Source: Thermoplasmata archaeon (GTDB taxonomy: Archaea > Thermoplasmatota > Thermoplasmata > Lutacidiplasmatales > UBA184). Taken from it: a DNA stretch of 64,000 nt. The notes beneath the pieces are model-generated. The model was not told the origin of the DNA and did no database searches. It worked only from the letters and a program-made list of their open reading frames with translations. A program made the position numbers and the translations under genes. Shown here piece by piece: positions 17,194-35,764 of the stretch. The stretch is from positions 35,208 to 99,207 of the forward strand of contig JBKQPJ010000015.1 in the NCBI GenBank assembly GCA_052326305.1, read 5' to 3'. The first letter of the stretch is position 1, and every line of letters starts with the position of its first letter.

Positions 17194-19968
17194 ATGGCGG
17201 TCGGACGACTCGTCGGGCGGGCGGCCCTCGTTTGCTTGGTGGTCGGGGCGCTGATGTCGGTCGGCGTCATCGCGCCGTCCTCCCCGGCGCGGACGGACGC
17301 CCCGCCGGTCGTCGCGTTCGCGGGGCCGTGTTCCCATGCGACCGCGCCCGAAGCGCCCTCCGGCGTAGTGACGGTGGAGGGGGGGCCGCTCCCGGCGACG
17401 GCCGCCTCGGGAGTGACCGTCGACTACTCGTACAGCTACGAGCTGCGGCTGGTGAACAACGCGACCGGCGCGGTCCTCGCGGTCAACTGCGATCGGCGCA
17501 CGGTGACCGCGACGACCGACCCCACCGGGGCGTTCGAGCTGCTCGCGCAGATCCCGTCGAACGACTGCGGTTCCGTCCCCCGGTTCTGCACCTACACGAC
17601 CGGGCCCTTCGGGCCGTTCTCCGTCGGCCTGAGCGCCCCGCCGCCCGTCGGCTACGCTTCCTCGGTCTCGGGAGGCCCGAGCACGTTCGCGATATCGGAA
17701 GTGTACGAGCTGGCCGAGGTGCGCGTCTCGCCGGAAGGACCCACCCTTACCGTCGCCCCGGGGGCGCCGACCACGTTCACCGCGGAGGGGTTCATGGCGA
17801 ACGGGTCGGAGACCCCCCTCGAGGCCACCTTCTCCTGGTCGCTGAACGGGAGCGGATGGTCGTTCCCCTCCGCTCCGTCGGGACCCACCGCCACGGTCCT
17901 CGCCGTTCCGGGGGCCGGGGTCGGCGCTCTCGAGGTCGCGGCGACGGCCGGGGTCCCGGGGGCCACCCTCGCCCCGCCGCCGGTCCACCTCACGCTCCTC
18001 CAGCAGTCGACCGCGATCGAGGAGGCGGAGCTCGACCGTACGACCGTCGACGCGAACTCGACGATCGTCGCCCATCTTGTCGCCGTCGGGGCGGCCGGGT
18101 ACCCGTACTCCGCGACCGTCGCCCCCGGGTTGGGGCTTCGGCCGGTGGCCGCGTCGTGCGTCTCGGATCCCTCCGGGGCCGGGACGACGAACGTCAGCTG
18201 CTCGGCGAACCTCACGTACCCCTTCCCGGGGATCGCCCAACCGACCGCCCGGCTCACGAACGGCTATTCGTCGACCACCTGGCAGTACCCGGACGTGACG
18301 ATCGATCCTCCTCCGGTGCTGTCGGCGGAGCCGGGAGCTCCCGTCGGCTACGCCGCGTCCCCGCTGCCGATCGAGCTCGTCGCCGCGACCGGTTCGGGGG
18401 CGCCTCCCTACTCCCGCGCCTGCCTCGAGCTCGCGACCCAGCGGACGAGTTGTGAGATCGCGCCGGGCCCCACGTGGAGGTTCCTTCCCACGTTCCCCGC
18501 GCCCGGCGACTACGTCGCCCTGGGCTGGGCCTTCGATTCGGAGGGCGCCAACGCGTCGACCTCCTTCACCGTCACCGTCGTCCCTCCCCTCGCCGTGGGA
18601 TCGATCGGCGTCGACCCCGGGAACGTGACCGCGGGGACCGCCGTGGCGCTGACCGCCACGATCTCGGGGGGAGACCTTCCCCTGCGGTACTGGTGGAACG
18701 CCTCCGACCTCGGCGGATCGATCGTCGCCGGGACCTCCTACGAGGACGGCGTGATCTCGGTCGACCTCGTCGCGCCCGCGCCGGCCGCGGTGTCGGTATC
18801 GCTCACGGTCATCGACGCGCTCGGGACGTTCGCGGAGGCCGACCGGCTGCTCTCCGTCGGTCCGGAGGCGGCGATCACCCTCGCCGTCATCGACCCACCG
18901 CCGGCCACCACGGTCGTCGCGGGGTCCCCGTTCGATGTGGCGTGGGAGGCGATCGACCGGTCGGGGGCCCCGGTCCGAGGCTTCGGGTCGACGGCCGAGA
19001 TCCTCCTCTCGCTCTCCGGTACGCCGGCGGCCGGCCACGTCAACGCCTCCGGGCTCGGACCGCTTCCCTCGCTCGGGAACGGGTCGTACGGCGTCCCGAC
19101 GACCGGCTGGGTGGGCGGGGTCCTGAACCTTTCCGTCACGGTCACGACCGCGGGGGTCCTCACCGTCGCCCTCACGGGGCCGGGGCTCCCCGGGCCGGCC
19201 AGCTCGTTGGCGGTCGCGATCGCCCCGGACCGCGCCCACCTCCGGCTCCTCGACCCGGTCGTGGCGGTCCGCGGGAGCCGCACGAACTCTACGTTCTGGC
19301 ACGTCATGGATCGCTTCGGCAACCCCGCGACCGGTGCCCTCGTGACCGTCCGGCTCGACTGGGGACCGGCGAGCGAGACCGCCCTCGTCGCCACCGTCCC
19401 GGGGGCGAACGGCACGACGGGCGCGTGGGTGAACTTCTCCGCCCCGGGGCCGGGCGGCGGCCAGCTGACCGTTCTCGATTCCTCCGGCGAGGCGCTCCTC
19501 GGGCCGCTCGAGATACCCCCGGCCGCCGCTCCCTCCTCGGTCAGTGCGGCGACCGTGACGCTCGCCGCTGCCGTGCCCCTCGGCGCGATCGGGGCGGCGT
19601 GGGCCGGCCTCGTGCGACGCCGCTCCCGGCTGCGCTCCCACCCCCCGGGCGACGAGGCGGAGCTCCGGCGCCTGGCCGAGGGACGCGCCCAGGCCGTCGA
19701 GATCGTGCGACGGGCCGGGACGGCCGACCTCGCCGAGATCGAGGCGGCCTGGCGACCCCCGCCCGCCCCGACGGACCTACCCGAATGGATCGCCTCGCTC
19801 GTGACCGACGGAACCTTCGGTGCGACGCTCGGGAACGACGGCCACGCCCGGTTCTGCCTGGCGGCCGGGCCCCGCCCCGATCCCCAGGTGACGGTCGATC
19901 CCGAGGAACTCGACCGGGCCCTGCACCGCCGGGACGAGGTCCTCGGCGACGAAGGCCCCGGGCCCTAG
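17194..19968 (+). CDS. Cell-surface glycoprotein (S-layer-like) with N-terminal signal/TM segment, at least 15 N-X-S/T sequons and a C-terminal TM anchor plus cytoplasmic tail
   Basis: The N-terminal hydrophobic stretch is AALVCLVVGALMSVGVIA. Sequons seen include NAT, NGS (several), NST, NVS, NLT, NAS, NVT, NGT and NFS. The C-terminus has a TM helix (TVTLAAAVPLGAIGAAWAGLV) followed by RRRSR and a roughly 100 aa tail. Confidence 0.75.
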   Translation: MAVGRLVGRAALVCLVVGALMSVGVIAPSSPARTDAPPVVAFAGPCSHATAPEAPSGVVTVEGGPLPATAASGVTVDYSYSYELRLVNNATGAVLAVNCDRRTVTATTDPTGAFELLAQIPSNDCGSVPRFCTYTTGPFGPFSVGLSAPPPVGYASSVSGGPSTFAISEVYELAEVRVSPEGPTLTVAPGAPTTFTAEGFMANGSETPLEATFSWSLNGSGWSFPSAPSGPTATVLAVPGAGVGALEVAATAGVPGATLAPPPVHLTLLQQSTAIEEAELDRTTVDANSTIVAHLVAVGAAGYPYSATVAPGLGLRPVAASCVSDPSGAGTTNVSCSANLTYPFPGIAQPTARLTNGYSSTTWQYPDVTIDPPPVLSAEPGAPVGYAASPLPIELVAATGSGAPPYSRACLELATQRTSCEIAPGPTWRFLPTFPAPGDYVALGWAFDSEGANASTSFTVTVVPPLAVGSIGVDPGNVTAGTAVALTATISGGDLPLRYWWNASDLGGSIVAGTSYEDGVISVDLVAPAPAAVSVSLTVIDALGTFAEADRLLSVGPEAAITLAVIDPPPATTVVAGSPFDVAWEAIDRSGAPVRGFGSTAEILLSLSGTPAAGHVNASGLGPLPSLGNGSYGVPTTGWVGGVLNLSVTVTTAGVLTVALTGPGLPGPASSLAVAIAPDRAHLRLLDPVVAVRGSRTNSTFWHVMDRFGNPATGALVTVRLDWGPASETALVATVPGANGTTGAWVNFSAPGPGGGQLTVLDSSGEALLGPLEIPPAAAPSSVSAATVTLAAAVPLGAIGAAWAGLVRRRSRLRSHPPGDEAELRRLAEGRAQAVEIVRRAGTADLAEIEAAWRPPPAPTDLPEWIASLVTDGTFGATLGNDGHARFCLAAGPRPDPQVTVDPEELDRALHRRDEVLGDEGPGP

Positions 19969-21862: not shown

Positions 21863-22310
21863 GCTCCACTGGAAATGGAGGGGTGGGGGTCGGGCGGAGG
21901 GCCGCCGCGGGACCGGGCCTCGGCCCGGCGGCGTGCTAGGCCAGCAGGATTGCCGTCCGGACGGACCGCGCGGAACCCTCGCAGGCTCCTCAGCCCCGTT
22001 GCCCCGCCAGCGTCGACGGGTCACGGTAAGGCTGCTCCCGTCAGGACCTGACCCGATGCCCGTGATGGATACCCGCTAGGGCGCTCCTCCGAGCGCTCGT
22101 CGCGGAGCCCGCGGCCCGGCGGAACAGGACGTCTACGAAGCCACGCGAGGCGCGTGATTCGTCCGGACGTCGCTCCTGCCTGTCACCCCCGCTAAGGACG
22201 GTTTCGGTGTGTAAGGGGACGCCCAACCCCCCGGTCTAGCCTAGCGAAGGTACGACGCCCCGGCTCCTACATAGCCCTTGGCGTGCCGGCCCGGACGCCT
22301 CCGGCCCGCC

Positions 22311-24545
22311 CTAGCGGATGTGTTCGAGGCTGAACGAGCCGAGGTTGAAGGAGCGTTTCGTGAACGTGTAGCCGACCCAGCTGCGGGCCTGGGCCTCGCC
22401 GATCCCGCGCACCGAAAGGAACGTCTTCATCTGCTCGACCTTGAGGTTCAGCGAGCCGTCGACCATGTGCTCGAGGGTCTCCATGTCCGACTCCGAGTGC
22501 ATGCCGCTGTCGAGGATGTAGTACCCGACCGCCGTGTCGAGCTTGCGGCGTCCGATGAACGGCTGCAGGAATCGGAACGTCGACGCCGAGTCCATGTAGG
22601 CCGTGATCGTCGAGACCGATTCGAAGATCAGGCGGTACGTCGAGTGCTTTTCCTTGAGCTCCTCCGCGATCCCGTTGACCGACTGGCCGAGCTGCTCGAG
22701 GACCCCCTTGTCGGTGGAAGAGAGGAGGCGAACGCCGGGGCCCGAGATCGTAGAGCCGACCGACCGGGAGTACAGGTCGACGTACCGGATCATCCCGTTC
22801 TTCTCCGCCTCCGCGTAGGCGGGGTAGAGGGCCACGAGGTCGTCCCGGACCTGGCCGAAGGTCTTGTCCGTCACGACCCAGATCGACGGGATGCCCACGC
22901 GGAGCCCCTCGACGCTGAAGAGGCGCGCGAGCACGTCCTTCCCCGTGTGCGCCGGACCGTTCACCATGACCTGGACCCCCGGGGGGAATCCGCCGAACAG
23001 CAGGTCGTCGAGCCGTCGGACCCCGCTCTTCACCTTGCTCGATTGCGCAGCGGTGACGCTCTCCTCGTGCATCCGGTCCGCCTCGGCCTCCGCCGTCTTT
23101 CCCGAGAGGCGCTCGAGCTCCTGGATCCGCTCCAGCATCTGGCCCTCCCGGGCCTTCAGTTCGGCCTCCTTCTGGGAGAGCTCGTGCCGCAGGTCCTCGA
23201 GCCGCTGGGCCTCGCTGACGGCGACCACCGAACCGCTCGCGTTCAGCCCGCGTCGGATCTCCTCGAGGCGACGGGCCTCGATGTCGAGCGCCTGCCGTCG
23301 GGTCTGGAGCTGCTGGTCGTAGGCGGCGAGCTCCCGCTCCTTGAACTCGATCGGGCCCCGGCGCCGTTCGACCTCCTCGGCGCTGATCCGGATCTCCTCG
23401 AACTTGGCCCGCAGCTCGTTCTCCCGGCCGACGAGGTCGCGCTGGCGCTGGGCGATCTCCTCGAGGCGTTTGGCCGTCTCGGCATCGATCTGCCCGGCGC
23501 GCGAACTGACCATCGATTCGCGTTCCTTGGCCTGCTCGGTCTCGCCGACGAGGCGTCGGACGTCCCCTTCGAGCTGGACGACCCGGCGGCGCAGCTCCGT
23601 CTCCCGCTCGATGTACTCGTGCTCCCGGTCGGCGAACTCCTCGCGAAGGCGGGTGTCGCCCTCCCCCGGCCGGGCCGCCGGGGCGGCGGGCCCCGGGGGG
23701 GCCCCGGCCCCGTCGATCCCGGGGGCCGGGCGGGGCGTCGTCTCGCCCAGGGCGGAGAGGCGGAGCCGGAGCTCCTCGAGCTCCTTTTCCTTCTCGCGGA
23801 CGGCCGTCTCGCGCTCCTTGGCCTCGCGCGAACGAACGTACTTGATCACGGCGATCGAGCCCCGCTTGACGTGCTCGACCTGGTCCTCGAGCGTCTTGCG
23901 CCGGGTGCGCTCGTCGTAGAGCTGGCGCTGGAGGTCCTGGACCTCCTGGATCATCGCGGCCGGATCGAACTGGTCCGACTTCACCCGGTCGAGCAGCCCG
24001 GTGAGCCAGCGGACGACCGTCTCCTCCCGGTCGCTCACCGCCGGGCCGGCGGCGATCTCCGCGCCGGACCGGTGCCCTCCGTCCTCCGACCGGGCGGACG
24101 ACGGTCGCACCGGGGCGGCGATCCCCCCGCCGGCCCCTTCGGAGGACTGGATCCAGTCCTCCATCGCCCGATCGTCGCCGCCGACCCACTTGCGGAGGAC
24201 GTCGGCCGAGTCCTTCGGGGCGGAGGCGACCTTCCGACGACGGGGTCGGTCCGTCTGCCGCACCATGCCGGCCCACCGCTCGACGAGCTGTTCGCTCTGG
24301 GCGGCCGCCGTGGGGTCGGAACCGCCGGCGGGCGGGGCGGCGTGGATCGCGGAGCGTTCCTGGACGTCCGCGCCGAGGCGTTCGAGATCCTCGACCGAGA
24401 GGCCGCGGACCGCCTCCGGGGTCGGGAAACCGGCCTCGACGAAGCGCCGGGCGGTCTCCGGACGGATCCCGAGCGACCGGGCGAGCTCCTGCTCCGGCGA
24501 CGACGGACCGGGCGCGGCAGGCACGATCTCCGTCGAGCCGTCCAT
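22311..24545 (-). CDS. KaiC/RadA-like RecA-superfamily ATPase with N-terminal HhH-like segment and long coiled-coil
   Basis: The C-terminal domain reads RLDDLLFGGFPPGVQVMVNGPAHTGKDVLARLF (KaiC-type Walker A). The middle roughly 350 aa are heptad-rich, charged E/R/K/L coiled-coil. The N-terminus has SLGIRPETARRFVEAGFPTPEAVRGLSVEDLERLG. I take the start as the Met at 24545. Confidence 0.7.
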   Translation of the reverse strand: MDGSTEIVPAAPGPSSPEQELARSLGIRPETARRFVEAGFPTPEAVRGLSVEDLERLGADVQERSAIHAAPPAGGSDPTAAAQSEQLVERWAGMVRQTDRPRRRKVASAPKDSADVLRKWVGGDDRAMEDWIQSSEGAGGGIAAPVRPSSARSEDGGHRSGAEIAAGPAVSDREETVVRWLTGLLDRVKSDQFDPAAMIQEVQDLQRQLYDERTRRKTLEDQVEHVKRGSIAVIKYVRSREAKERETAVREKEKELEELRLRLSALGETTPRPAPGIDGAGAPPGPAAPAARPGEGDTRLREEFADREHEYIERETELRRRVVQLEGDVRRLVGETEQAKERESMVSSRAGQIDAETAKRLEEIAQRQRDLVGRENELRAKFEEIRISAEEVERRRGPIEFKERELAAYDQQLQTRRQALDIEARRLEEIRRGLNASGSVVAVSEAQRLEDLRHELSQKEAELKAREGQMLERIQELERLSGKTAEAEADRMHEESVTAAQSSKVKSGVRRLDDLLFGGFPPGVQVMVNGPAHTGKDVLARLFSVEGLRVGIPSIWVVTDKTFGQVRDDLVALYPAYAEAEKNGMIRYVDLYSRSVGSTISGPGVRLLSSTDKGVLEQLGQSVNGIAEELKEKHSTYRLIFESVSTITAYMDSASTFRFLQPFIGRRKLDTAVGYYILDSGMHSESDMETLEHMVDGSLNLKVEQMKTFLSVRGIGEAQARSWVGYTFTKRSFNLGSFSLEHIR

Positions 24546-24637
24546 GGGTCCCGGACCCGTCCTAGCGCTACGTAAGGTCATAATATGTCCCTCGGACGGT
24601 CGCCGGAACGGGCGCCGGCGCCGGCGGTACGTTACGG

Positions 24638-24647
24638 GATAAATACC
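24638..24647 (+). promoter_or_regulatory. TATA box (GATAAATACC) for tyrS
   Basis: It sits about 25 bp upstream of the GTG start at 24667. Confidence 0.5.
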
Positions 24648-24666
24648 GGCCGGCCTCAGGCTAACC

Positions 24667-25737
24667 GTGGACATCGACGAGCGCGTCGACCGGGTCGTTC
24701 GCTACACCGTCGAGGTGCTGACGCCCGACGAGGTCCGCGCGCTCTTCGAGCGGACCGACCGTCCGAGGGCGTACATCGGGTTCGAGCCGTCCGGCGCACT
24801 CACCGTCGCCCACCTGATCACCGCCCGGAAGATCCGCGACCTCGCCGAGGCCGGATGTGACGTCACCATCCTCCTCGCCGACTGGCACGCCTGGATCAAC
24901 GACAAGCTCGGAGGAAGCCTCGAGCGAATCGACGCGGCGGGTCGGTACATGCAGGCGACCTTCGAGGCGCTCGGAGCCGACCCGGGGCGCGTCCGGTTCC
25001 GGTGGGCCCACGAGCTCTCCGGCGATTCCGACTACTGGGCCCGGGTCGTGCGCGTGGCGAAAGCGACCACGCTCGCCCGCACGAAGCGGGCGATGTCGAT
25101 CATGGGTCGGTCCGAGGAGGAGTCGAACCTCGACACGTCGAAGCTCTTCTATCCGGCCATGCAGGCCGCCGACATCTTCGAGCTCCCCGTCGACCTCGCC
25201 TACGGAGGGATCGACCAGCGACGCGCGCACGTCCTCGCGCGGGAGGTCGCGCACCATTACTCCTGGCCGGTGCCGGCCGCCGTGCACACGCCCCTCCTCT
25301 CGTCGTTGAAGGGCGGTGCCCGGATGGACCCGGTCGAGGGGCTCATCGAAGGAAAGATGTCGAAGTCCGACCCGGGCACGGGGATCCCGATCCCGGCCGA
25401 GCGGTCCGAGATCGCATCGCGGATCGCCTCGGCGTTCTGCGAGGCGAAGACGGTCGAGGGGAACCCGATCGTCGAGGTCGTCCGGTACATCGTCTTCCCG
25501 TGGGAGGGGCGCCTCGCGATCGAGCGCGCCGAGAAGCACGGCGGTCCGGTGGCGTTCGAATCGGTCGACGAATTCCTCTCGGCGTGGCGGGACGGAAAGC
25601 TCCACCCGCAGGATCTCAAGTTGGCCGTCACGGCGGCGCTCGACCGGCTGGTCGAGCCGGCGCGACGGCATTTCCGGGCCCATCCCGATCTCTCGCCCGC
25701 TTCGTTCGCCCCGCGCCCGGAGGCGCGGGCCGGCTGA
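24667..25737 (+). CDS. tyrS: Tyrosine--tRNA ligase, archaeal type
   Basis: Matches IGFEPSGALTVAHL...ILLADWHAWINDK and KMSKS, i.e. a class I aaRS with an archaeal TyrRS N-terminus. GTG start. Confidence 0.9.
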   Translation: MDIDERVDRVVRYTVEVLTPDEVRALFERTDRPRAYIGFEPSGALTVAHLITARKIRDLAEAGCDVTILLADWHAWINDKLGGSLERIDAAGRYMQATFEALGADPGRVRFRWAHELSGDSDYWARVVRVAKATTLARTKRAMSIMGRSEEESNLDTSKLFYPAMQAADIFELPVDLAYGGIDQRRAHVLAREVAHHYSWPVPAAVHTPLLSSLKGGARMDPVEGLIEGKMSKSDPGTGIPIPAERSEIASRIASAFCEAKTVEGNPIVEVVRYIVFPWEGRLAIERAEKHGGPVAFESVDEFLSAWRDGKLHPQDLKLAVTAALDRLVEPARRHFRAHPDLSPASFAPRPEARAG

Positions 25738-26479: not shown

Positions 26480-27838
26480 CTACTGCCCTGCCGATTCCCC
26501 TACAAGCATAGCGGATGGGGCTCCGGCAGGGGCCGGACCGCTGAGGAAGTCGGGCATGACTCCGTGCTCGAAAATCTCGTGGATTAGGACGGTCAGGTTG
26601 TAGGCCAGGATCTTCGCCAACAGCTCGTTGACCTGGGCTGTGGGATTCTTGGATCGTAGCGTCTCCCCGAACTTCCGCTTGAGGGCCGAGAAGACTGACT
26701 CCACATTCGACCGAGCATGGTACTTGGCCTCGAACTCCTCCCGGTGCATCTGGAAGAACAGGTACGCCTTGCGCCATAGAAGCGAATGGCTGCGGGCGCG
26801 CGCCTCCGGTGTTCCGCTCCTCAACGTTGTGCGACCGGTTTGATTGGACCGGAACGGAACGTAGAGGTCGAAACCCATCTCTTCAGCGAGTGCGTAGTTC
26901 GCCCGCGCCGAATACGCCTTGTCACCGAAGACTTCCTTGAGGCAAAGACCCGCCTTCGCTGCCTGCCGGATGAGCGGCTCGAACTGTGGATTGTCCGCTC
27001 CCTCCTTTCCTGTCACGGAAACCGCGGCGATGATGTGTGTCTTGACGCCGGCGAGGGCATGGGCCTTGATCCAGAGGTGTTCCCGCTTCTCCCCGTGCTT
27101 TTCCTCTCTCCACGCGCCGAACGAGGTCGTTTGGATGCCCGTCGAGTCAGGGGCGAAGCCACTTTCCAATGCCGCGACCGGGAGGGCCGACCGTGTGATG
27201 AGTTCGTGCAGTATCGGGGTCACATCCTCCCTATTCAGGACTTCCGAGGAGATCGTGTAGTGCGGGGCCTTCGGCAACTGACCCCGCTCGACGGCGAAGC
27301 CGAAAAGACCCCTCGCCCGCCGGCACGAAAGCTGCGAATAGACTTTCTGGACTGAGCAAAAGAGTTGATCCGCGAGCGCAATCGGCGGCCGCCCGGCGTG
27401 GTGGGGATCCCTCTCCGGCTCGGGGATACCCACGACGAGGTCCCGGAGAAGAATGTCGAAGAGACGAATCTCCTCTGTTTGCGCCCGGTCGTACGCCGCC
27501 CATGCCTGGGGGTAGGTGAGCGGAACTCGCTCGGAGACCGTCTCGCCCGAGGGGAGAGTTGTCTGCTTTTCGAGGTAGAACCGAACGGATGCTGCATGCT
27601 TGCAGGGCAGGCCACGCGAGGAGTAGTCCTGGCAGGAACACTCGGGACCCTTCTCGGCGAGATGCACTCGGTACGAACCCGGTCCGCTCTGAGACTTGAC
27701 CAGGAAGAGATCATCACGCACTTGTTCAATGGCTCCGGGAGTCGCTGCGATGAGCCTGCCCTTCGCGACCCGATCAGCGTCGATACTCCAGCCCCCCCAC
27801 CCCGAGGCTGGACTCGGCGGGCCCTCCAGACTCTGCAT
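26480..27838 (-). CDS. DDE transposase (IS4/IS5-like DDE_Tnp_1) with N-terminal SWIM-type zinc finger
   Basis: Contains CSCQDYSSRGLPCKHAASV (SWIM CxCx(n)CxH), DKAYSARANYALAEEMG, and YHARSNVESVFSALKRKFGETL (R..VE..F..LK). Start is uncertain: the Met at 27838 is preferred and Mets at 28000 and 28231 are alternatives. Confidence 0.75.
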   Translation of the reverse strand: MQSLEGPPSPASGWGGWSIDADRVAKGRLIAATPGAIEQVRDDLFLVKSQSGPGSYRVHLAEKGPECSCQDYSSRGLPCKHAASVRFYLEKQTTLPSGETVSERVPLTYPQAWAAYDRAQTEEIRLFDILLRDLVVGIPEPERDPHHAGRPPIALADQLFCSVQKVYSQLSCRRARGLFGFAVERGQLPKAPHYTISSEVLNREDVTPILHELITRSALPVAALESGFAPDSTGIQTTSFGAWREEKHGEKREHLWIKAHALAGVKTHIIAAVSVTGKEGADNPQFEPLIRQAAKAGLCLKEVFGDKAYSARANYALAEEMGFDLYVPFRSNQTGRTTLRSGTPEARARSHSLLWRKAYLFFQMHREEFEAKYHARSNVESVFSALKRKFGETLRSKNPTAQVNELLAKILAYNLTVLIHEIFEHGVMPDFLSGPAPAGAPSAMLVGESAGQ

Positions 27839-27886
27839 CGTTCCTCCCCACCTACCGTTGCCTACGTGTAGGCTATGGGCCTGCCG

Positions 27887-27893
27887 ATATAAA
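27887..27893 (-). promoter_or_regulatory. Strong TATA (ATATAAA) upstream of the transposase, flanked by two gcctacgtg direct repeats
   Basis: The sequence reads gatataaagg. cgcctacgtg occurs at 27859-27868 and 27902-27911. The first copy is part of the palindrome GCCTACGTGTAGGC at 27860-27873. Confidence 0.45.
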
Positions 27894-27971
27894 GGTGTAT
27901 CGCCTACGTGGGCGCCAACCCATAGGCTATAGTTAAGTAGCCGACCCCCCGTCAAGGAGATTGGAGAGTCC

Positions 27972-28178
27972 GTGCCGGGAATCTTCAGGTCCCCAATCAT
28001 TCTCGTCCGCGAGAAGTCACCCTCGGTCCGCGTGACGATCCCCGAGGGTGTCGCCAAGGCCCTCGGAGCAGAGCCCGGTAAGGACTTGGTTTGGACGCTC
28101 GACCTCAAGGCAGGTTGGGTTACGGTCTCGGCGGAGCCGCCTGAATTTGCTCCCAAGAATGCGTCCAAGCGACGCTGA
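27972..28178 (+). CDS. AbrB/MazE-like (SpoVT/AbrB swapped-hairpin) small DNA-binding protein
   Basis: 68 aa with a GTG start. VRVTIPEGVAKALGAEPGKDLVWTLDLKAGWVTV matches the AbrB-type pattern. Confidence 0.45.
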   Translation: MPGIFRSPIILVREKSPSVRVTIPEGVAKALGAEPGKDLVWTLDLKAGWVTVSAEPPEFAPKNASKRR

Positions 28179-28319
28179 ACCCAAGCCCGACCCGCGGGCC
28201 CTTGGCGCCGCCGATTCCCGTCAGAGCGCACGAAGAACTAGCTCGGAGGCATTGAAAGGACTTTCCTTCCAAAGGAAAGTGCCTAATAGGAAGGTTGTGT
28301 TAGGAATGTCGATTAGAAC

Positions 28320-28676
28320 ATGTCAGCCTCGACAGGAGCGCAGAGACTATTCTCCCAGACGTTCCTTCAAGAAGCGTTGGCTCAGGAAGTTCATCGACTA
28401 CTGTCACTTCAGTACGCCCGAGGGATTCTCGAGGCGCTAGACGAACATCACGAGGGGCTGGACGTCAGGTGGTTTGATGTCAAGGTTGTCGGCGTTGAAG
28501 GGTCGGGCAGGACTGCGTACGTAGTGGTCAAGAAGCTCTCCGCCGCCGGTTGGATATCTTCTAGGGCAGGCACCAAGCCCCAGCGTTGGCTTCTAACCCC
28601 GAAGGGGAAGGAAGCACTGGATCTCGCTCGTCAGGGAGATTCCATAGGAAACGGGGGGCGGGGGCCCGCTAGATGA
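28320..28676 (+). CDS. Putative winged-helix regulator translationally coupled to the C5-methyltransferase
   Basis: 118 aa. Its stop overlaps the methyltransferase start as ATGA. The C-terminal WISSRAGTKPQRWLLTPKGKEAL looks like a wing. Confidence 0.4.
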   Translation: MSASTGAQRLFSQTFLQEALAQEVHRLLSLQYARGILEALDEHHEGLDVRWFDVKVVGVEGSGRTAYVVVKKLSAAGWISSRAGTKPQRWLLTPKGKEALDLARQGDSIGNGGRGPAR

Positions 28677-29923
28677 GGGGGAATCGGTTCGGGTTCGTCG
28701 ACCTCTTTTGTGGAGCGGGCGGGTTTGCCGAGGGGTTCCTACAGGCCGGGACCGACCGTTCGGAGTTCCAACTGCTCGCGGCCTCGGATGTGCATCGCCA
28801 CGCGCAGGCAACTCACGAGTACCGATTCGGCACTCAGCTCGGTATCCCGTACCGGTTCATCCGGAAGGACATCAGGGACCCGGGCCTCCTTCCTGAGGTC
28901 CGCGAAGCGGTTTCATTAGGGTCCGAAGTCGATGTGGTTTGCGGTGGCCCACCCTGCCAGGGATTCTCGGTCTTCGGCGCAAGGCGCCGGGACGACCCGA
29001 GGAACGATCTGTTCCACCCCTACCTACAGATAGTGCATGCGCTCAGGCCGCGATACTTCGTCATGGAGAACGTGCCCGGCTTCGTCTACATGTATCGGGG
29101 TATGGCCGAGCAACGCATCCGCGAGGCGGTCGATAGCCTGAGGCGGCCTGGTTACACCCTAGCGGGACCGATCTTCGTCAATGCGGCGTCGTTTGGGGTT
29201 CCCCAGTCTCGGGAGCGGGTCATCTTCCTGGGATCGCGCGATGACCAACCGAGGATCGGCTCGGTGCCGGTGCCCGAGGGCATCCACTCCCCATCGGTGG
29301 GGGAGGCGATTTCGGACCTCGCGTTTCTCGGGTCGGGCATGAAGGCAATCGACTATGATCCCCGGTTCCCCCCGGCTTCCGATTACCAGAGGGACTCCCG
29401 TCTCGGCCGGTCCAAGACGCGACCGACTTGGGACGGCAGGCTCCAAAACCACGAGTCCTCGCGGCACACTTCCAGGGTCCTGACACGGTTTCGGCTCGTT
29501 CCGAAAGGGCACTCGACCAAGGATGTGAAAGAGGTGCTGGTCCGCGAAGGGGTCGACTCCGGCAAGAAATGGTGCGTGCGCATTGACGATGCCGACCCGT
29601 CCTTCACGCTCACGACCATTCCGGACGACTTCATCCACTACTCGCAGGACAGGAGCCTGACCGTGCGTGAGTGTGCGCGCCTCCAGTCCTTCGATGATTC
29701 GTTCGTGTTCCTCGGTCCCCGGACAACGGGTGGCGGAGGCGCGGGAAACAAGGTGCGGAACACCGATCTTCCCCAGTATACACAAGTCGGAAACGCCGTG
29801 CCACCGCTAATGGCGCGGGGCATCGCGTTGACGCTTCTCAGGAATCTGGAGAAGACATCCGCTCACCCAGATGGGCCCGAACGACCTTCAGGAACCGCGC
29901 GAGTTCCTTTGGTCGCGGTCTGA
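28673..29923 (+). CDS. DNA (cytosine-5)-methyltransferase
   Basis: Motif I FCGAGGF, motif IV PPCQGFS, motif VI ENVPGF, and a C-terminal QVGNAVPP are present. Confidence 0.9.
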   Translation: MRGNRFGFVDLFCGAGGFAEGFLQAGTDRSEFQLLAASDVHRHAQATHEYRFGTQLGIPYRFIRKDIRDPGLLPEVREAVSLGSEVDVVCGGPPCQGFSVFGARRRDDPRNDLFHPYLQIVHALRPRYFVMENVPGFVYMYRGMAEQRIREAVDSLRRPGYTLAGPIFVNAASFGVPQSRERVIFLGSRDDQPRIGSVPVPEGIHSPSVGEAISDLAFLGSGMKAIDYDPRFPPASDYQRDSRLGRSKTRPTWDGRLQNHESSRHTSRVLTRFRLVPKGHSTKDVKEVLVREGVDSGKKWCVRIDDADPSFTLTTIPDDFIHYSQDRSLTVRECARLQSFDDSFVFLGPRTTGGGGAGNKVRNTDLPQYTQVGNAVPPLMARGIALTLLRNLEKTSAHPDGPERPSGTARVPLVAV

Positions 29924-30750: not shown

Positions 30751-31224
30751 GTGGCGGATCGGTTGACTCACGCCCAGAGGAGCCGACTGATGTCTCGAAT
30801 ACGGGGTAGGGACACGTTTCCGGAGCTGGCACTCCGGAAAGCCCTGCGCAGACGGGGAGTGCGGTACCGGTCAAACCAGCGGGTCCACGGCATCCGTGTC
30901 GATTTGGTCCTGCGGGGAACGAAGACCCTCGTGATGGTCCAGGGCTGTTTCTGGCACGGCTGCCCCCGTCACTATATCGCTCCGAAATCCAACTCCCGAT
31001 TCTGGAAGAAGAAGATTGTAGCGAACAGAGAGAGGGACCGGTGGCAGGCGGCAATCCTCAGCGCGATGGGGTGGCAGGTGGTCGTGTTGTGGGAGCACGC
31101 CCTCAGGACCGACCCGGCCCGCGCCGTGGAACGATTGATAACCACCGCGCCTCTCCCGTGTAGGGCGGCCCGGCAGGGGGATGCCGGTTACCTGTCAGAT
31201 GAGCGGGGAATGGAGATCCGATAA
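30751..31224 (+). CDS. vsr: Very-short-patch repair endonuclease Vsr
   Basis: TFPELALRKALRRRGVRYR...MVQGCFWHGCPRHY gives a full Vsr signature. Confidence 0.85.
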   Translation: MADRLTHAQRSRLMSRIRGRDTFPELALRKALRRRGVRYRSNQRVHGIRVDLVLRGTKTLVMVQGCFWHGCPRHYIAPKSNSRFWKKKIVANRERDRWQAAILSAMGWQVVVLWEHALRTDPARAVERLITTAPLPCRAARQGDAGYLSDERGMEIR

Positions 31225-33337
31225 GCAGGGCGCGGAGGTCTTCCGCCCCCGAGCCCGCGTCATCAACGTCCTCGGCCGCGACCTGATCCAGAACCCGGTG
31301 GTCGCGATCCAGGAGCTGGTCAAGAACGCGTACGACGCGGACTCCCACCGCATCCGGCTCACTTTCGAGGGACCGCTGGAGAAGGGGCTCGGCGGCCTCA
31401 CCATCGAGGACGACGGGGATGGGATGACCCTCGAGACCGTCCGCACCGCGTGGATGGAACCGGCGACGATCGCGAAGCGCCGCCAGACCCGGACCCGGGC
31501 GGGCCGTCGGGTTACCGGGGAGAAGGGGATTGGCCGGTTCGCTTCCGCCCGCATAGCCAGCCAGCTCGAACTCGACTCCGTTGCCCGGGAGAACGGTCGC
31601 CGGGTTATGGCGCATTTCAACTGGGGAGAGTTCGAGGGCGAGGACCGGTACCTCGACGAGATCCGATGCCGCTGGGAAGAAGGGGCTGCTCCTAGGGGGC
31701 GCGGCCACGGGACGATCCTTCGACTCCGGCAGTTCACCCAGAAGTGGAACGAGGAGAACCTGAGGAATCTGCGGGTCCAGTTATCGAGGTTGCTGCCTCC
31801 CACCGGACCGAAGGCAGACTTCGAGATCGGGTTCGCGGTCGGGGGAACTCTGGGGAAGCGCCTCTCGGGCCCGATCGAGAGGCCCACGTTCATCGAGCAC
31901 GCCCGCTACCAACTACGAGGTCGCGTCGAAGCCGACGGCTCGGTGACGGCGGAGGTATCGTACCGGTCGAGAAGCGAGCCGTTCGTCGAGAAGGGGGGAG
32001 CCCCAGTCCGTGTTGTCATCGAGCGGGAGGGGGAGGAGGACCGACCGCCGACATGCGGTCCGTTCGAGTTCGACATCCGTGTTTGGGACCGCGAGCCCGA
32101 GGACATGAGGGAGCTCGCCAAAGCGGCCGGGTCGACCCTCAGGGACGTGAGGATGGACCTCGACGAGCTGAGCGGGCTCCAAGTCTACCGGGACCGGTTC
32201 CGCATCGTCATGCAAACGCGGGATTGGCTGGGCCTCGACCTTCGCCGGGTCCAGAATCCTAGCCTACGCCTGAGCAACAACCAGATCGTAGGTCACGTCC
32301 AGATCGAATCCGACCGGAACACCGGGCTCGTGGACCAGTCCAACCGCCAGGCGCTCGTAGACAGCCCGCAGCTCGACGACTTCGAGGAAGCAATCCTGTT
32401 CCTGCTCAACCGCCTGGAGGTGTTCCGGCGCCTCAAGAGGCGGAGCCCTGAGAGACCGCCGCCCCGTGCCAGCCTGCTCGAAAAGTTCAACCTGACCGAA
32501 CTCCAAGACTACGTAGCGAAGTCGGACCACTCCAAGGACGAGAAGCTCACCTCCATCATCCAGTCGACGGCGGCCGGAATCAAGACCGGCCTCGGCCAGG
32601 TCCGGGAGATTGTATCACGCTACCGACGCCTGGCAACCCTCGGTACCCTCGTCGACGTGATTCTGCACGAAGGGCGGACGCCCATCGCCGCGATCTCCAA
32701 TTCCGTGGAGATTCTGAAGAAGAGCCTGGCCGGAGGACTCCCCGCACGCGAGGCCGCCGAGGTCAAGCACCAGCTCGATGTGGTCGACCACCAGGTCCAA
32801 GTCCTAACCCAACTCTTCGACCGGGTGGCTCCGTTCAGCGGACGGGCCCGGGGCCGCGTCGAGGTAGCCCCCCTGGAGGACATCATCGCTCGGGCGTTCG
32901 CGGTTCACGCCGGTAGGATCGAGAAGGAGGGGGTGCGGGTCGAACTGCCGTCGGGGCAGACAACCATCCGGATGGACCCCATCGATTTGGAGCTCCTCTT
33001 CCTGAATCTCATCGACAACGCCCTCTACTGGCTACAGAAGGTCCCTGCGGGAAAGCGAGCCATCCGGGTAGAGGTGGCCCGAACCGATGGTAGGGTCGAG
33101 GTCGTGTTCTCAGACAGTGGACCAGGGGTCCAACCGGAGATTGCTGACATGATCTGGGACCCCTGGTTCACCACGAAGCCGGGGGGGATCGGCCTCGGGC
33201 TTACCATCGCCGGGGAGACGGCCGCCGAGCACGACGCGACCCTAGGTCTCTCCGAGAAGGGCCCGCTCCCGGGCGCGACGTTCGTTGTCACCTTCAACTC
33301 TCCCGGCGGTGAAGCCACCCGCGAAGGAGTGGAGTAG
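31181..33337 (+). CDS. Fusion protein: N-terminal paraMORC/MutL-like GHKL ATPase (HATPase_c_3-type) plus C-terminal histidine kinase (HisKA + HATPase_c)
   Basis: The N-terminal GHKL has an N-box (IQELVKNAYDAD), G1 (IEDDGDGM) and G2 (GEKGIGRFASA). The C-terminal region has an H-box (HEGRTPIAAISNSVEIL) and a classical kinase ATPase (FSDSGPGV...GGIGLGLTIA). It overlaps the vsr 3' end by 44 bp. Confidence 0.8.
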   Translation: MPVTCQMSGEWRSDKQGAEVFRPRARVINVLGRDLIQNPVVAIQELVKNAYDADSHRIRLTFEGPLEKGLGGLTIEDDGDGMTLETVRTAWMEPATIAKRRQTRTRAGRRVTGEKGIGRFASARIASQLELDSVARENGRRVMAHFNWGEFEGEDRYLDEIRCRWEEGAAPRGRGHGTILRLRQFTQKWNEENLRNLRVQLSRLLPPTGPKADFEIGFAVGGTLGKRLSGPIERPTFIEHARYQLRGRVEADGSVTAEVSYRSRSEPFVEKGGAPVRVVIEREGEEDRPPTCGPFEFDIRVWDREPEDMRELAKAAGSTLRDVRMDLDELSGLQVYRDRFRIVMQTRDWLGLDLRRVQNPSLRLSNNQIVGHVQIESDRNTGLVDQSNRQALVDSPQLDDFEEAILFLLNRLEVFRRLKRRSPERPPPRASLLEKFNLTELQDYVAKSDHSKDEKLTSIIQSTAAGIKTGLGQVREIVSRYRRLATLGTLVDVILHEGRTPIAAISNSVEILKKSLAGGLPAREAAEVKHQLDVVDHQVQVLTQLFDRVAPFSGRARGRVEVAPLEDIIARAFAVHAGRIEKEGVRVELPSGQTTIRMDPIDLELLFLNLIDNALYWLQKVPAGKRAIRVEVARTDGRVEVVFSDSGPGVQPEIADMIWDPWFTTKPGGIGLGLTIAGETAAEHDATLGLSEKGPLPGATFVVTFNSPGGEATREGVE

Positions 33338-34471: not shown

Positions 34472-35764
34472 GTGTGGCAAACCTATTACCAGGAAGCGAG
34501 TATCAACCCCGGCGTGCGCTCTTCCGCCGATGAATGTCGCCGCCCGATTCCCTGCGGTATTGACTTGTTTTCGGGTGCCGGCGGGTTCGGCCTGGGATTC
34601 GAAGCGGCGGGCTTACCCGTCGTGGCCTCCCTAGACAAGGATGCGGATGCCGTAGCCACCCTCGCCGCGAACCCCCCCATTGGCCCCCGGCTTGTCTTCC
34701 ACACCGACATCCGTTCGTTTGGCCCATTAGCGATGGACAAAGCAATCGAGGGCCTTTCTCCCCGTTACCGAGTCGACTTCCTCATCGGCGGGCCGCCATG
34801 CCAGGGCTGGAGCAGGGTCGGACGAGGGAAGCTACGGTCACTCGGGCGTATCGGGTCCACTCCCGCGCCCTTCGCCGAGGAGCGGAACAGGTTGTATCGT
34901 CCGTTCCTCCGGTATGTGTCCCACTTCCGGCCGCGCGTCGTCCTCCTGGAGAACGTGCGGGGAATGGAGTGCTACTACGGGCACGATGGAACGAAGGCGA
35001 TCACGACAGCACTGGACTCTCTGGGGTACCGGACTAAGGTGGTTCCCCTCGACGCCGCCGACTTCGGGGTGCCCCAGCAGAGAAGGCGACTCGTTATTGT
35101 GGGCGTTAGAGAGGACCTGGGACTGGAGCTGGACACACCGATTGGCCCACCCGCCGGATTGGGCATGGATGGCGCCGCACCGACAGTCCGCGACGCGATC
35201 GGCGATCTCCCGTGGGTCCCGTCGGGGAACCAGAGGGATGTGATGCCTTACCGGAAGCTGGAGGATGCCTCTGCGTACCTCAGCCTCCTCCGCCCCGGAT
35301 GGATGAACGGCTCGGTCACTGCCCATATCACCCGGCCCCACCGCCCGGAGGACCGCGAGGCGTTCCGATCGATGAAACAAGGCGGGATCTACTCTGACCT
35401 ACCCGACCGTCTCAAGCGGTATCGCGACGACATATTTGCCGACAAATATCGGAGGTTGGAGTGGGACAAGCCCAGCCCGTGCCTGACGGCCCACCTCGCG
35501 AAGGACGGCTACTCGCACATCCACCCGAGTCAGACGAGGACGATCTCTGTACGGGAGGCGGCGAGGATTCAGGGGTTCCCCGATTGGTACGTCATAGCCG
35601 GGTCGATGGGGAGCCAATTCCGCCAGATTGGAAACTCAGTCCCCCCTCTGCTAGCGTACGCGCTCGCGATTGCTGTACGGAATTTCCTCGGAGTGAAGTC
35701 GGAAATCTCGTGGGACGTTCTATCGTGTTCCGTCTTGCAGACTGGTACGGTCACGAACGAGTGA
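34472..35764 (+). CDS. DNA (cytosine-5)-methyltransferase (second copy)
   Basis: Contains FSGAGGFGLGF, PPCQGWS, ENVRGM and QIGNSVPP. Confidence 0.9.
   Translation: MWQTYYQEASINPGVRSSADECRRPIPCGIDLFSGAGGFGLGFEAAGLPVVASLDKDADAVATLAANPPIGPRLVFHTDIRSFGPLAMDKAIEGLSPRYRVDFLIGGPPCQGWSRVGRGKLRSLGRIGSTPAPFAEERNRLYRPFLRYVSHFRPRVVLLENVRGMECYYGHDGTKAITTALDSLGYRTKVVPLDAADFGVPQQRRRLVIVGVREDLGLELDTPIGPPAGLGMDGAAPTVRDAIGDLPWVPSGNQRDVMPYRKLEDASAYLSLLRPGWMNGSVTAHITRPHRPEDREAFRSMKQGGIYSDLPDRLKRYRDDIFADKYRRLEWDKPSPCLTAHLAKDGYSHIHPSQTRTISVREAARIQGFPDWYVIAGSMGSQFRQIGNSVPPLLAYALAIAVRNFLGVKSEISWDVLSCSVLQTGTVTNE

Follow-up and report, generated by a model that had tools for sequence, protein, structure and literature searches.

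A KaiC-like domain with a rewritten nucleotide pocket, joined to a conserved coiled coil and an (HhH)2 domain, in uncultured Thermoplasmata

The gene and its features

KaiC-like proteins are abundant in archaea, and few of them have been characterised experimentally. Here we describe one that is encoded in a 64,000-nucleotide stretch of DNA from a Thermoplasmata archaeon (assembly GCA_052326305.1, contig JBKQPJ010000015.1, positions 35,208 to 99,207; henceforth the window). The gene lies on the minus strand at 22311-24545, and its 744-residue product combines a C-terminal KaiC-like domain, in which catalytic residues of the nucleotide pocket have been systematically replaced, with a long coiled coil, a series of tryptophan-containing helices and an N-terminal helix-hairpin-helix domain of the (HhH)2 type. 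The features of the gene and its upstream region are listed below; residue numbers refer to the 744-residue protein throughout, with the single exception of the DUF7504 match range, which is given on the longer 787-residue frame (AF2, AlphaFold2; pLDDT, predicted local distance difference test).

24639-24645, plus: second AT-rich box, ATAAATA (TATTTAT on the minus strand), about 25 nt before the GTG of the tyrosyl-tRNA synthetase (TyrRS) gene
24581..24586, minus: AT-rich box ATATTA, about 39 nt upstream of the gene's ATG, read from the sequence
22311..24545, minus: complete gene, 744 codons plus stop; product identical to the NCBI protein P0001 from a metagenome-assembled genome (MAG)
24342..24497, minus: (HhH)2 domain, residues 17-68, five helices (AF2 pLDDT about 90, HHH_5, family profile)
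24225..24311, minus: first Trp helix, LVERWAG (residues 79-95; AF2), and Arg-rich patch DRPRRRK (residues 98-107; conservation)
24138..24212, minus: double-Trp helical hairpin VLRKWVGGDDRAMEDWI (residues 112-136), predicted helices 112-121 and 126-136 (AF2)
23751..24041, minus: third Trp helix, VVRWLTGLLDRVK..FDP, then a long helix (residues 169-265; AF2, conservation)
23664..23750, minus: variable Pro/Ala-rich linker, residues 266-294, predicted disordered (pLDDT <50)
23043..23663, minus: main coiled-coil stalk, residues 295-501, predicted helices 295-348, 355-436 and 443-501, with Gly-Pro at 397-398
22314..23033, minus: KaiC-like RecA-fold domain, residues 505-744 (Pfam, AF2, Foldseek, profile search)
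22935..22958, minus: deviant P-loop GPAHTGKD, residues 530-537, with Asp at the Mg-binding Ser/Thr position (read from the sequence)
22860..22883, minus: strand IWVVTDKT, residues 555-562, with D560-K561 at the positions of the two catalytic glutamates of KaiC (profile alignment)
22608..22637, minus: Walker B strand YRLIFESVST, residues 637-646, aligned with KRVVIDSIT of KaiC, Glu replacing Asp

The longest open reading frame (ORF) counted from the first ATG spans 22311-24674 (minus) and would encode 787 residues; the start at 24545 is its Met44. The resulting 744-residue protein is identical to one deposited for a MAG of Thermoplasmata (P0001, contig JBKQRB010000003.1), and the N-termini of most orthologues coincide with the position of Met44 (MDGSTE). 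Thus, the gene as it had been delimited in an earlier note on this DNA, with its start at 24545, is real. Two starts further upstream were rejected, since with Met1 at 24674 the gene would overlap that of the divergent TyrRS (start at 24667), and Met32 at 24581 falls within an AT-rich box. Other long frames across the gene (e.g. 22278-24575, plus) are the usual shadow ORFs of a genome with 72% GC. Both AT-rich boxes sit in the 121-bp divergent intergenic region between the gene and TyrRS. As judged from sequence and position, ATATTA might be the archaeal TATA box of the gene, and the second box is placed to serve TyrRS, which suggests a leaderless TyrRS mRNA.

The C-terminal domain has a KaiC-like fold

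That the protein ends in a single KaiC-type domain, as proposed earlier, held on closer analysis. The Pfam KaiC model (PF06745) scores 52.1 bits (cut-off 26.6) and finds one domain only, and the Pfam model DUF7504 (PF24336) scores 44.4 bits (gathering cut-off 27) over residues 567-741 of the 787-residue ORF. When the domain was modelled alone with AF2 on a diverse alignment of 71 sequences, a confident RecA-type fold was obtained (pLDDT 93.3, predicted TM-score (pTM) 0.91). Foldseek searches with this model returned PH0284 as the best structure (TM-score 0.78-0.83), followed by KaiC, and the scores over PH0284, the CI and CII domains of KaiC and PH0186 ranged from 0.72 to 0.83. A search of the PDB with the single sequence gave PH0284 and KaiC at about 1e-8 to 1e-9. 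The profile of the domain matched KaiC (1.9e-33), PH0284 (5.9e-26), PH0186 (4.5e-21), SSO2452 (7.7e-18) and FlaH (4e-11), and at lower significance RadB (5.2e-5), bacterial RadA (1e-4) and Rad51 (1.9e-4). Profile matches and predicted model together argue firmly for a KaiC-like fold of the RecA superfamily. A ring form of the domain may be inferred because the closest solved structures, PH0284, whose structure entry contains six chains, and KaiC, are ring hexamers. The extreme C-terminus, GSF[ST]L[DE]HIR (22314-22340, minus; GSFSLEHIR in the window protein), is invariant across the family with the full architecture and flexible in the AF2 model; it may be a docking tail or supply an Arg acting in trans.

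The nucleotide pocket is rewritten in a conserved manner

To describe the active site, we counted residues in the aligned C-terminal domains of 147 cluster representatives (clusters at 50% identity). The P-loop of the window protein, GPAHTGKD, departs from the canonical Walker A pattern GxxxxGK[S/T] by the Asp that follows the Lys. This is a trait of the whole subfamily, whose P-loop signature is GPxFxGK[E/D]: the P-loop Gly is kept in 137-140 and the Lys in 132 of the 147 representatives, and the residue after the Lys is acidic in 122 (Glu in 106, Asp in 16) and Ser or Thr in seven. The segment VVTDKTF, which had been taken for a Walker B-like strand, turned out to be something else, since in the KaiC alignment it falls on VTFEES, the strand of the catalytic glutamates, and the Walker B strand is YRLIFES further downstream. 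In KaiC a pair of glutamates follows strand beta-2 (which we take to be E77/E78 in the CI domain of S. elongatus KaiC); the window protein has D560-K561 in their place. Across the family the first of these positions is mostly Asp (84; Ser in 25, Asn in 12) and the second mostly basic (Lys in 60, Arg in 36). At the Walker B acid the window protein carries a Glu (LIFES), a conservative change, and the family has Arg (34), Leu (29), Glu (14) or Asp (13), such that the acid is missing in about 80% of members.

Because substitutions have removed the Mg-binding Ser/Thr, both catalytic glutamates and, in the family at large, the Walker B acid, canonical hydrolysis is doubtful, and the designation of the protein as an ATPase in the earlier note is unsupported as written. 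The residue counts read as a conserved rewriting of the active site rather than random decay. We infer from them that the pocket binds a nucleotide or another phosphate ligand with little or no canonical hydrolysis, and a nucleotide-sensing scaffold appears more likely than a working ATPase.

A coiled coil conserved in sequence

AF2 predicts helices at residues 169-189, 195-265, 295-348, 355-436 and 443-501 between the N-terminal region and the KaiC-like domain. Glu, Arg and Lys make up 37-45% of the four long helices (195-265, 295-348, 355-436 and 443-501), and the hydrophobic score at heptad positions a and d of residues 169-501, in the best register, is 0.508 as against 0.369 +/- 0.023 for shuffled sequences (z = 6). 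Taken singly, helices 295-348 and 355-436 have a significant 3.5-residue periodicity, attained by 2.2% and 3.4% of shuffles, respectively; for helix 443-501 the figure is 8.8%. A charged coiled coil of roughly 350 residues, as first noted, is therefore a fair description as far as heptads and charge are concerned, but it is not uninterrupted: the 29-residue Pro/Ala linker, which differs in length and sequence among orthologues, breaks the helical region. K402, E405, E460 and E467 hardly vary in the wide family and are kept, like the block HVK(K/R)GSxAVIKYV, at 26-30% overall identity. By this comparison the coiled coil is unusually conserved in sequence.

An (HhH)2 domain and tryptophan helices at the N-terminus

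The N-terminal domain (NTD) is modelled by AF2 as five short helices (residues 17-68, pLDDT about 90) in the layout of an (HhH)2 domain. The Pfam model HHH_5 scores 25.3 bits on the window protein, slightly under its cut-off of 27, and 32-49 bits on orthologous domains and more distant family members, of which the relative P0139 scores 49.3 bits; the canonical PGIG hairpins are retained in more distant members. A family profile built from 13 sequences matches P. furiosus Rad51 (8.5e-12) and M. voltae RadA (2.3e-10) over the whole NTD, the N-terminal extension of haloarchaeal eL32 (7e-16) and the HhH repeats of topoisomerase V (Topo V), as well as NusA, Pol X, Hel308 and XPF. The suggestion of an HhH-like N-terminus is thus borne out by the predicted helices, the HHH_5 scores of the orthologues and the profile matches to many (HhH)2 structures, all of which place the domain in the (HhH)2 superfamily.

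Behind the HhH domain follow three or four motifs with an invariant Trp (LVERWAG, VLRKWVGGDDRAMEDWI and VVRWLTGLLD). The first 500 residues hold four Trp, all of them within a Trp-helix motif. Among 64 orthologues, W91, W120 and W131 are invariant and R100 and R102 of the Arg-rich patch are at least 90% conserved. The double-Trp hairpin carries the hallmark motif of the family, LxxWLxG(D/E)(D/E)..LxxWL, which is found again in most of 29 distant relatives, frequently as two copies 11 residues apart, and which is predicted to fold as a helix-turn-helix. No Pfam model matches this motif. It occurs in one to four copies per protein (24138-24311 and 23985-24041, minus, in the window; relatives P0121-P0158). 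The most conserved N-terminal block, HVKRGSIAVIKYVR, lies in the region of residues 169-265, and the conserved N-terminal block C matches 21 cluster representatives at a whole-sequence E-value <= 1e-4.

A core gene of soil and peat Thermoplasmata

A first protein search returned 387 proteins. The best 120 of these are 693-799 residues long, are at least 62% identical to the 787-residue query and cover at least 88% of it (at least 92% in all but one partial protein); where named, they derive from Thermoplasmata MAGs. NCBI labels some relatives "DUF7504 family protein". An exhaustive search of representatives with the C-terminal domain gave 1361 clusters at E <= 1e-3, of which 123 reach E <= 1e-30, with N-terminal extensions of 0 to about 1000 residues. 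The N-terminal blocks are also present in about 20-30 of the best 150 representatives, several distant members add an N-terminal zinc ribbon, and the whole architecture is retained down to 26-30% identity.

In a collection of species-representative genomes, a scan with the C-terminal pattern GSF[ST]L[DE]HIR gave 294 matches, 274 of which were confirmed as stretches encoding a relative. The best 80 of the 274 come from uncultured Thermoplasmata or Thermoplasmatota from soil, peat and similar samples, among them Candidatus Lutacidiplasma and Lutacidiplasmatales, with the exception of one record titled "Methanobacteriota archaeon". These 80 served as the orthologous loci, and their gene neighbourhoods were compared by tblastn with the proteins encoded around the gene in the window. 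In most of them a divergent TyrRS gene flanks the orthologue, usually directly upstream, and an SRP (signal recognition particle) RNA gene on the same strand follows it, and after that come a gene for serine hydroxymethyltransferase (SHMT) and one for a large surface-type protein without a Pfam match. The window has the same arrangement of TyrRS, the gene, SRP RNA and SHMT, which is housekeeping synteny by descent. The gene thus behaves as a core, vertically inherited, stand-alone and lineage-specific gene of soil and peat Thermoplasmata.

The 450 bp downstream of the gene, described before as a gap free of ORFs, are occupied by a complete archaeal SRP (7S) RNA gene (Rfam RF01857, 21934-22246, minus; 136.8 bits, E = 4e-31). 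It begins 64 nt past the stop codon on the same strand, and this adjacency is kept in most orthologous loci. In many loci the orthologue and the SRP RNA gene are about 4 kb apart; in L035, the one such locus examined, the insert consists of opposite-strand genes for ABC-transporter permeases. At the most distant locus (L080) the neighbours are unrelated (a DAO oxidoreductase and TruD), and a canonical KaiC is encoded about 2.3 kb away on the other strand.

The earlier note had held that homologues from a common, already characterised family would speak against its proposal. The family is indeed common in Thermoplasmata, as the 274 stretches show, but in the literature we found nothing by which to call it characterised: our search returned no paper mentioning DUF7504 and none combining KaiC, HhH, coiled coil and archaea. 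Nor did we find a paper on the architecture or on the GK[E/D] signature; an earlier mention in the main survey of archaeal KaiC-like ATPases is possible.

Relatives that consist of the domain alone

The closest relatives that consist of the C-terminal domain alone are P0353 and P0358 (42-44% identity), followed by P0354, P0361, P0362 and P0405 (30-39%). Domain-only relatives were examined at four places, and at each the gene follows one for a Roadblock/LC7 protein and one for a fusion of about 390 residues between a KaiC-like region and an Arf/Ras-like GTPase. Pilin_N genes come next in two of the four loci, one of which adds a second KaiC-like gene and a T2SSE ATPase, and PAS-histidine kinases and/or response regulators flank three of the four. 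These surroundings (Roadblock, GTPase, two-component and pilin genes) support a role of the domain subfamily in signalling or regulation. The order Roadblock/LC7, KaiC-like/GTPase fusion, KaiC-like GK[E/D] protein recurs as an operon in other Thermoplasmatota (loci L088-L090, L093 and L094) and resembles a polarity module of the MglA/MglB type tied to a type IV pilus. Makarova et al. (PMC4858521) reported both KaiC-family ATPases and Roadblock proteins at archaeal type IV pilus loci, and regulation of these systems by the ATPases has been proposed (PMC4858521).

One distant homologue with the full architecture (P0284, 30% identity) has a locus of two T2SSE and two T2SSF genes about 1 kb away, with two opposite-strand genes in between. 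When the T2SSE, T2SSF and pilin-like proteins of this locus served as queries, neither the 64-kb window nor the flanks of the 80 loci (up to 6 kb) gave a match. Because the T2SSE and T2SSF queries found nothing there, service of a pilus by the window protein is not supported.

Comparison with known systems

The closest solved relatives, PH0284 and PH0186 of Pyrococcus and SSO2452 (COG0467, PF06745), share fold and size with the C-terminal domain, and their N-terminal motif TG..RLDDLL.GG.P and the P-loop Gly and Lys are kept in it. However, these proteins are the domain alone, whereas in the window protein about 500 residues of HhH domain, Trp motifs and coiled coil precede it, and the catalytic set is swapped for GK-D, D-K and E. 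DUF7504, whose gathering score the protein passes, belongs with DUF7090 and MEDS among the degenerate RecA-like domains; it is a domain label without known function that omits both the HhH/Trp-motif/coiled-coil architecture and the GK[E/D] signature.

A KaiC-fold ring with a coiled coil is likewise found in KaiC of Rhodobacter sphaeroides (KaiC-RS; PDB 8DBA and 8FWI), in which the coiled coil stabilises the oligomer and signals allosterically by a register shift with the phosphorylation state (PMC10076222). KaiC-RS is the best precedent for a stalk function on a KaiC ring. It differs in having two active ATPase/kinase domains and a C-terminal coil, formed by an extension of about 50 residues, and in working with KaiB; here there are a single remodelled domain, an N-terminal coil of about 300 residues, an HhH domain and no kaiB neighbour.

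ArlH is a stand-alone protein of about 230 residues whose P-loop has the canonical GK[S/T] and whose gene belongs to the arl operon; near the gene described here there is no arl or T2SSE gene. ArlH/FlaH resembles the window protein in its single KaiC-like domain, with a profile match of 4e-11, and relatives of the domain are encoded beside pilin and T2SSE genes. RadA and Rad51 share with it the order of an (HhH)2 NTD followed by a RecA-superfamily core, and their NTDs match the family profile end to end; by contrast, the core of the window protein is much closer to KaiC, its catalytic residues are not conserved, and some 440 residues of linker and coiled coil replace the short polymerisation linker.

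Several identities could be rejected. A circadian KaiC would have two tandem domains, Ser/Thr phospho-sites and a kaiB partner gene; the window protein has one domain only, no KaiB-like gene lies in the neighbourhood, and the NCBIfam circ_KaiC models score 15-27 bits (cut-offs 408-546). For ArlH, the model NF052589 stays far below its cut-off (12.3 as against 215 bits), and no T2SSE or T2SSF homologue was found in the window or the 80 loci. Bacterial RadA/Sms is likewise far below the NCBIfam cut-offs. The RecA/KaiC-fold head and the failure to find a hinge domain speak against an SMC/Rad50-type protein; SMC models match the coil only (8-13 bits, cut-offs 567-729). The view that the architecture is not that of a standard KaiC, RadB or ArlH is supported. 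The protein lacks the catalytic motifs of working KaiC proteins and fails the defining features of circadian KaiC, ArlH, RadA and SMC. By fold and Pfam score it belongs to the KaiC-like/COG0467 superfamily, and by score to DUF7504, but its architecture is unusual and its active site odd.

A putative ring with stalks and nucleic-acid-binding tips

We tentatively propose, at a probability of roughly 40%, that the protein is a stand-alone hub: a ring-forming pseudo-ATPase or slow ATPase with coiled-coil stalks and nucleic-acid-binding tips. The C-terminal domains would assemble as a ring, as they do in the closest solved relatives, and the rebuilt pocket would bind a nucleotide or other phosphate ligand with slow or no turnover and could thereby act as a switch or sensor. 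The coiled coils might bundle as stalks and relay the state of the head, in the manner of the Rhodobacter KaiC coiled coil. The (HhH)2 tips, together with the Arg-rich patch, would anchor the assembly on nucleic acid (most probably DNA), the Trp hairpins would serve as short docking motifs for partners, and the invariant tail GSFSLEHIR may be a further docking element. As to the process served, the nearest paralogues point by analogy to signal transduction.

Several observations weigh against this proposal. In the clade of the window protein the HhH motifs have eroded GIG hairpins (LGIRP and LGADV), because of which DNA binding is possibly weak or has been swapped for protein binding. Residual ATPase or autokinase activity is possible because the same clade retains the Glu at Walker B and the Asp at the first catalytic position, and the acidic residue that follows the P-loop Lys might in principle be a Mg ligand in its own right. 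Modelling of the full-length protein with AF2 gave a poor result (pLDDT 62.6, pTM 0.26) in which the C-terminal domain is mis-modelled, and at this pTM the topology of the coiled coil cannot be read from it. Finally, the comparison across the 80 loci revealed housekeeping synteny only and no conserved operon partner.

Four rival explanations were weighed. The protein might act in the cytoplasm as an accessory to a type IV pilus or to a machine like the archaellum, with its KaiC-like ring docked under a T2SSE ATPase as ArlH is under ArlI and the coiled coil in the scaffold role of ArlX. The proximity (about 1 kb) of the P0284 gene to its T2SSE/T2SSF locus, the operons of domain-only relatives with pilin genes and in one case a T2SSE ATPase, the literature on KaiC-family ATPases at pilus loci (PMC4858521) and the match to FlaH structures (4e-11) all favour this explanation. 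Yet the T2SSE and T2SSF queries drew a blank in the window and the flanks of the 80 loci, two opposite-strand genes part P0284 from its pilus genes, KaiC (1e-33) and PH0284 (6e-26) are much closer than FlaH, and the HhH domain is left unexplained; we regard a pilus accessory as unlikely. Similar odds attach to a nucleoid organiser or DNA tether of the SMC/Rad50 kind, which would use DNA-binding tips, long coiled-coil arms and a head governed by nucleotide to bridge DNA or compact it. The (HhH)2 domain with its conserved Arg-rich patch, the coiled coil of about 300 residues and the core, single-copy nature of the gene in housekeeping synteny would all suit such a protein, and weak SMC matches confined to the coil (E = 0.019) point the same way. 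But the head has a RecA/KaiC rather than an ABC fold, there is neither hinge nor zinc hook, the hydrolysis residues are missing, and the SMC matches, far below cut-off, reflect coiled-coil composition only.

An active KaiC-type autokinase or ATPase, working as a timer or phospho-switch with the acidic residue after the P-loop Lys as the Mg ligand, is also improbable. It would account for the conservation of the P-loop Gly and Lys, for a site that is remodelled and not decayed, and for E642 (Walker B) and D560, near the gamma-phosphate position, in the window clade; Pfam and the source annotation, moreover, both label the protein an ATPase. Against it stand the single domain, the lack of a kaiB-like neighbour, the Lys or Arg at the second catalytic Glu position in 96 of 147 representatives and the loss of the Walker B acid in about 80% of the family. 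A recombination mediator, i.e. a RadA paralogue of the Rad55 or RadB type in which the inserted coiled coil has split a RadA-like layout, is very improbable. Such a paralogue is suggested by the common domain order, by the HhH profile, which matches the NTDs of RadA and Rad51 over the full domain (1e-10 to 1e-12), and by sources that name relatives "RAD55 family ATPase" or "recombinase RecA". These names, however, are generic COG0467 labels, the core is KaiC-like (KaiC 1e-33 versus RadB 5e-5 and RadA 1e-4), the HhH profile matches Topo V, eL32 and NusA equally well or better, and no repair genes lie in the conserved neighbourhood.

The hub that we favour could be extended to an undescribed class of archaeal machine: a hexameric pseudo-ATPase ring with coiled-coil arms that end in (HhH)2 and Trp-hairpin tips, universal in a large uncultured Thermoplasmata lineage. 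Through a P-loop that senses a ligand instead of hydrolysing ATP, such a machine would give order to the nucleoid or link the nucleoid with the envelope or with signalling. We consider this a long shot. The family is nonetheless a clean and widely conserved case in which the catalytic machinery of a KaiC-like domain has been systematically rewritten (GK[E/D], a basic residue for the catalytic Glu, no Walker B acid) and in which a core and vertically inherited gene joins the rewritten domain to an (HhH)2 domain of the nucleic-acid-binding type and to a coiled coil that is long and conserved in sequence. Should the remodelled pocket bind a specific ligand, it would represent a new type of sensor within the RecA superfamily, and the Trp hairpin may turn out to be a docking module of a new kind. 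For the present its practical value is limited, as no cultured host was identified here and the genomic context offers no partner. There is also no direct link to an open question.

Other observations in the window and related loci

Next to the DLH gene, the GC content of the window falls from about 0.72 to 0.59-0.65 between about 26400 and 40000. This low-GC stretch holds the following genes, together with others of no assigned family, and looks like an inserted restriction-modification or defence island.

26480-28231, minus: DDE transposase with SWIM finger
28673-29923, plus: C5 DNA methylase
30751-31224, plus: Vsr endonuclease
31181-33337, plus: 718-residue HATPase_c_3 protein
34472-35764, plus: C5 DNA methylase

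A defence role was considered and rejected, since PADLOC gave no match and the methylase/Vsr/transposase island is an insertion outside the shared synteny.

On the other side of the gene, the plus strand at 17194-19968 encodes a 924-residue protein with no Pfam match, which begins with a signal-like segment, carries many NxS/T sequons and has a membrane anchor at its C-terminus. In many orthologous loci its gene lies in synteny next to SHMT, and it is probably a surface or S-layer-type glycoprotein. In a subclade with 43% identity, the gene of a DUF835 protein (which we take to be perhaps another degenerate KaiC/RecA-like domain) precedes the orthologue on the same strand at a distance of about 700 bp (locus L070, 3861-5213, plus). 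A third, short GK[E/D] KaiC-like subfamily (P0432, P0412 and P0436; loci L086, L087, L091 and L092) is always encoded directly after archaeal glyceraldehyde-3-phosphate dehydrogenase (GAPDH) and adjoins genes for large cadherin-like or beta-helix surface proteins.

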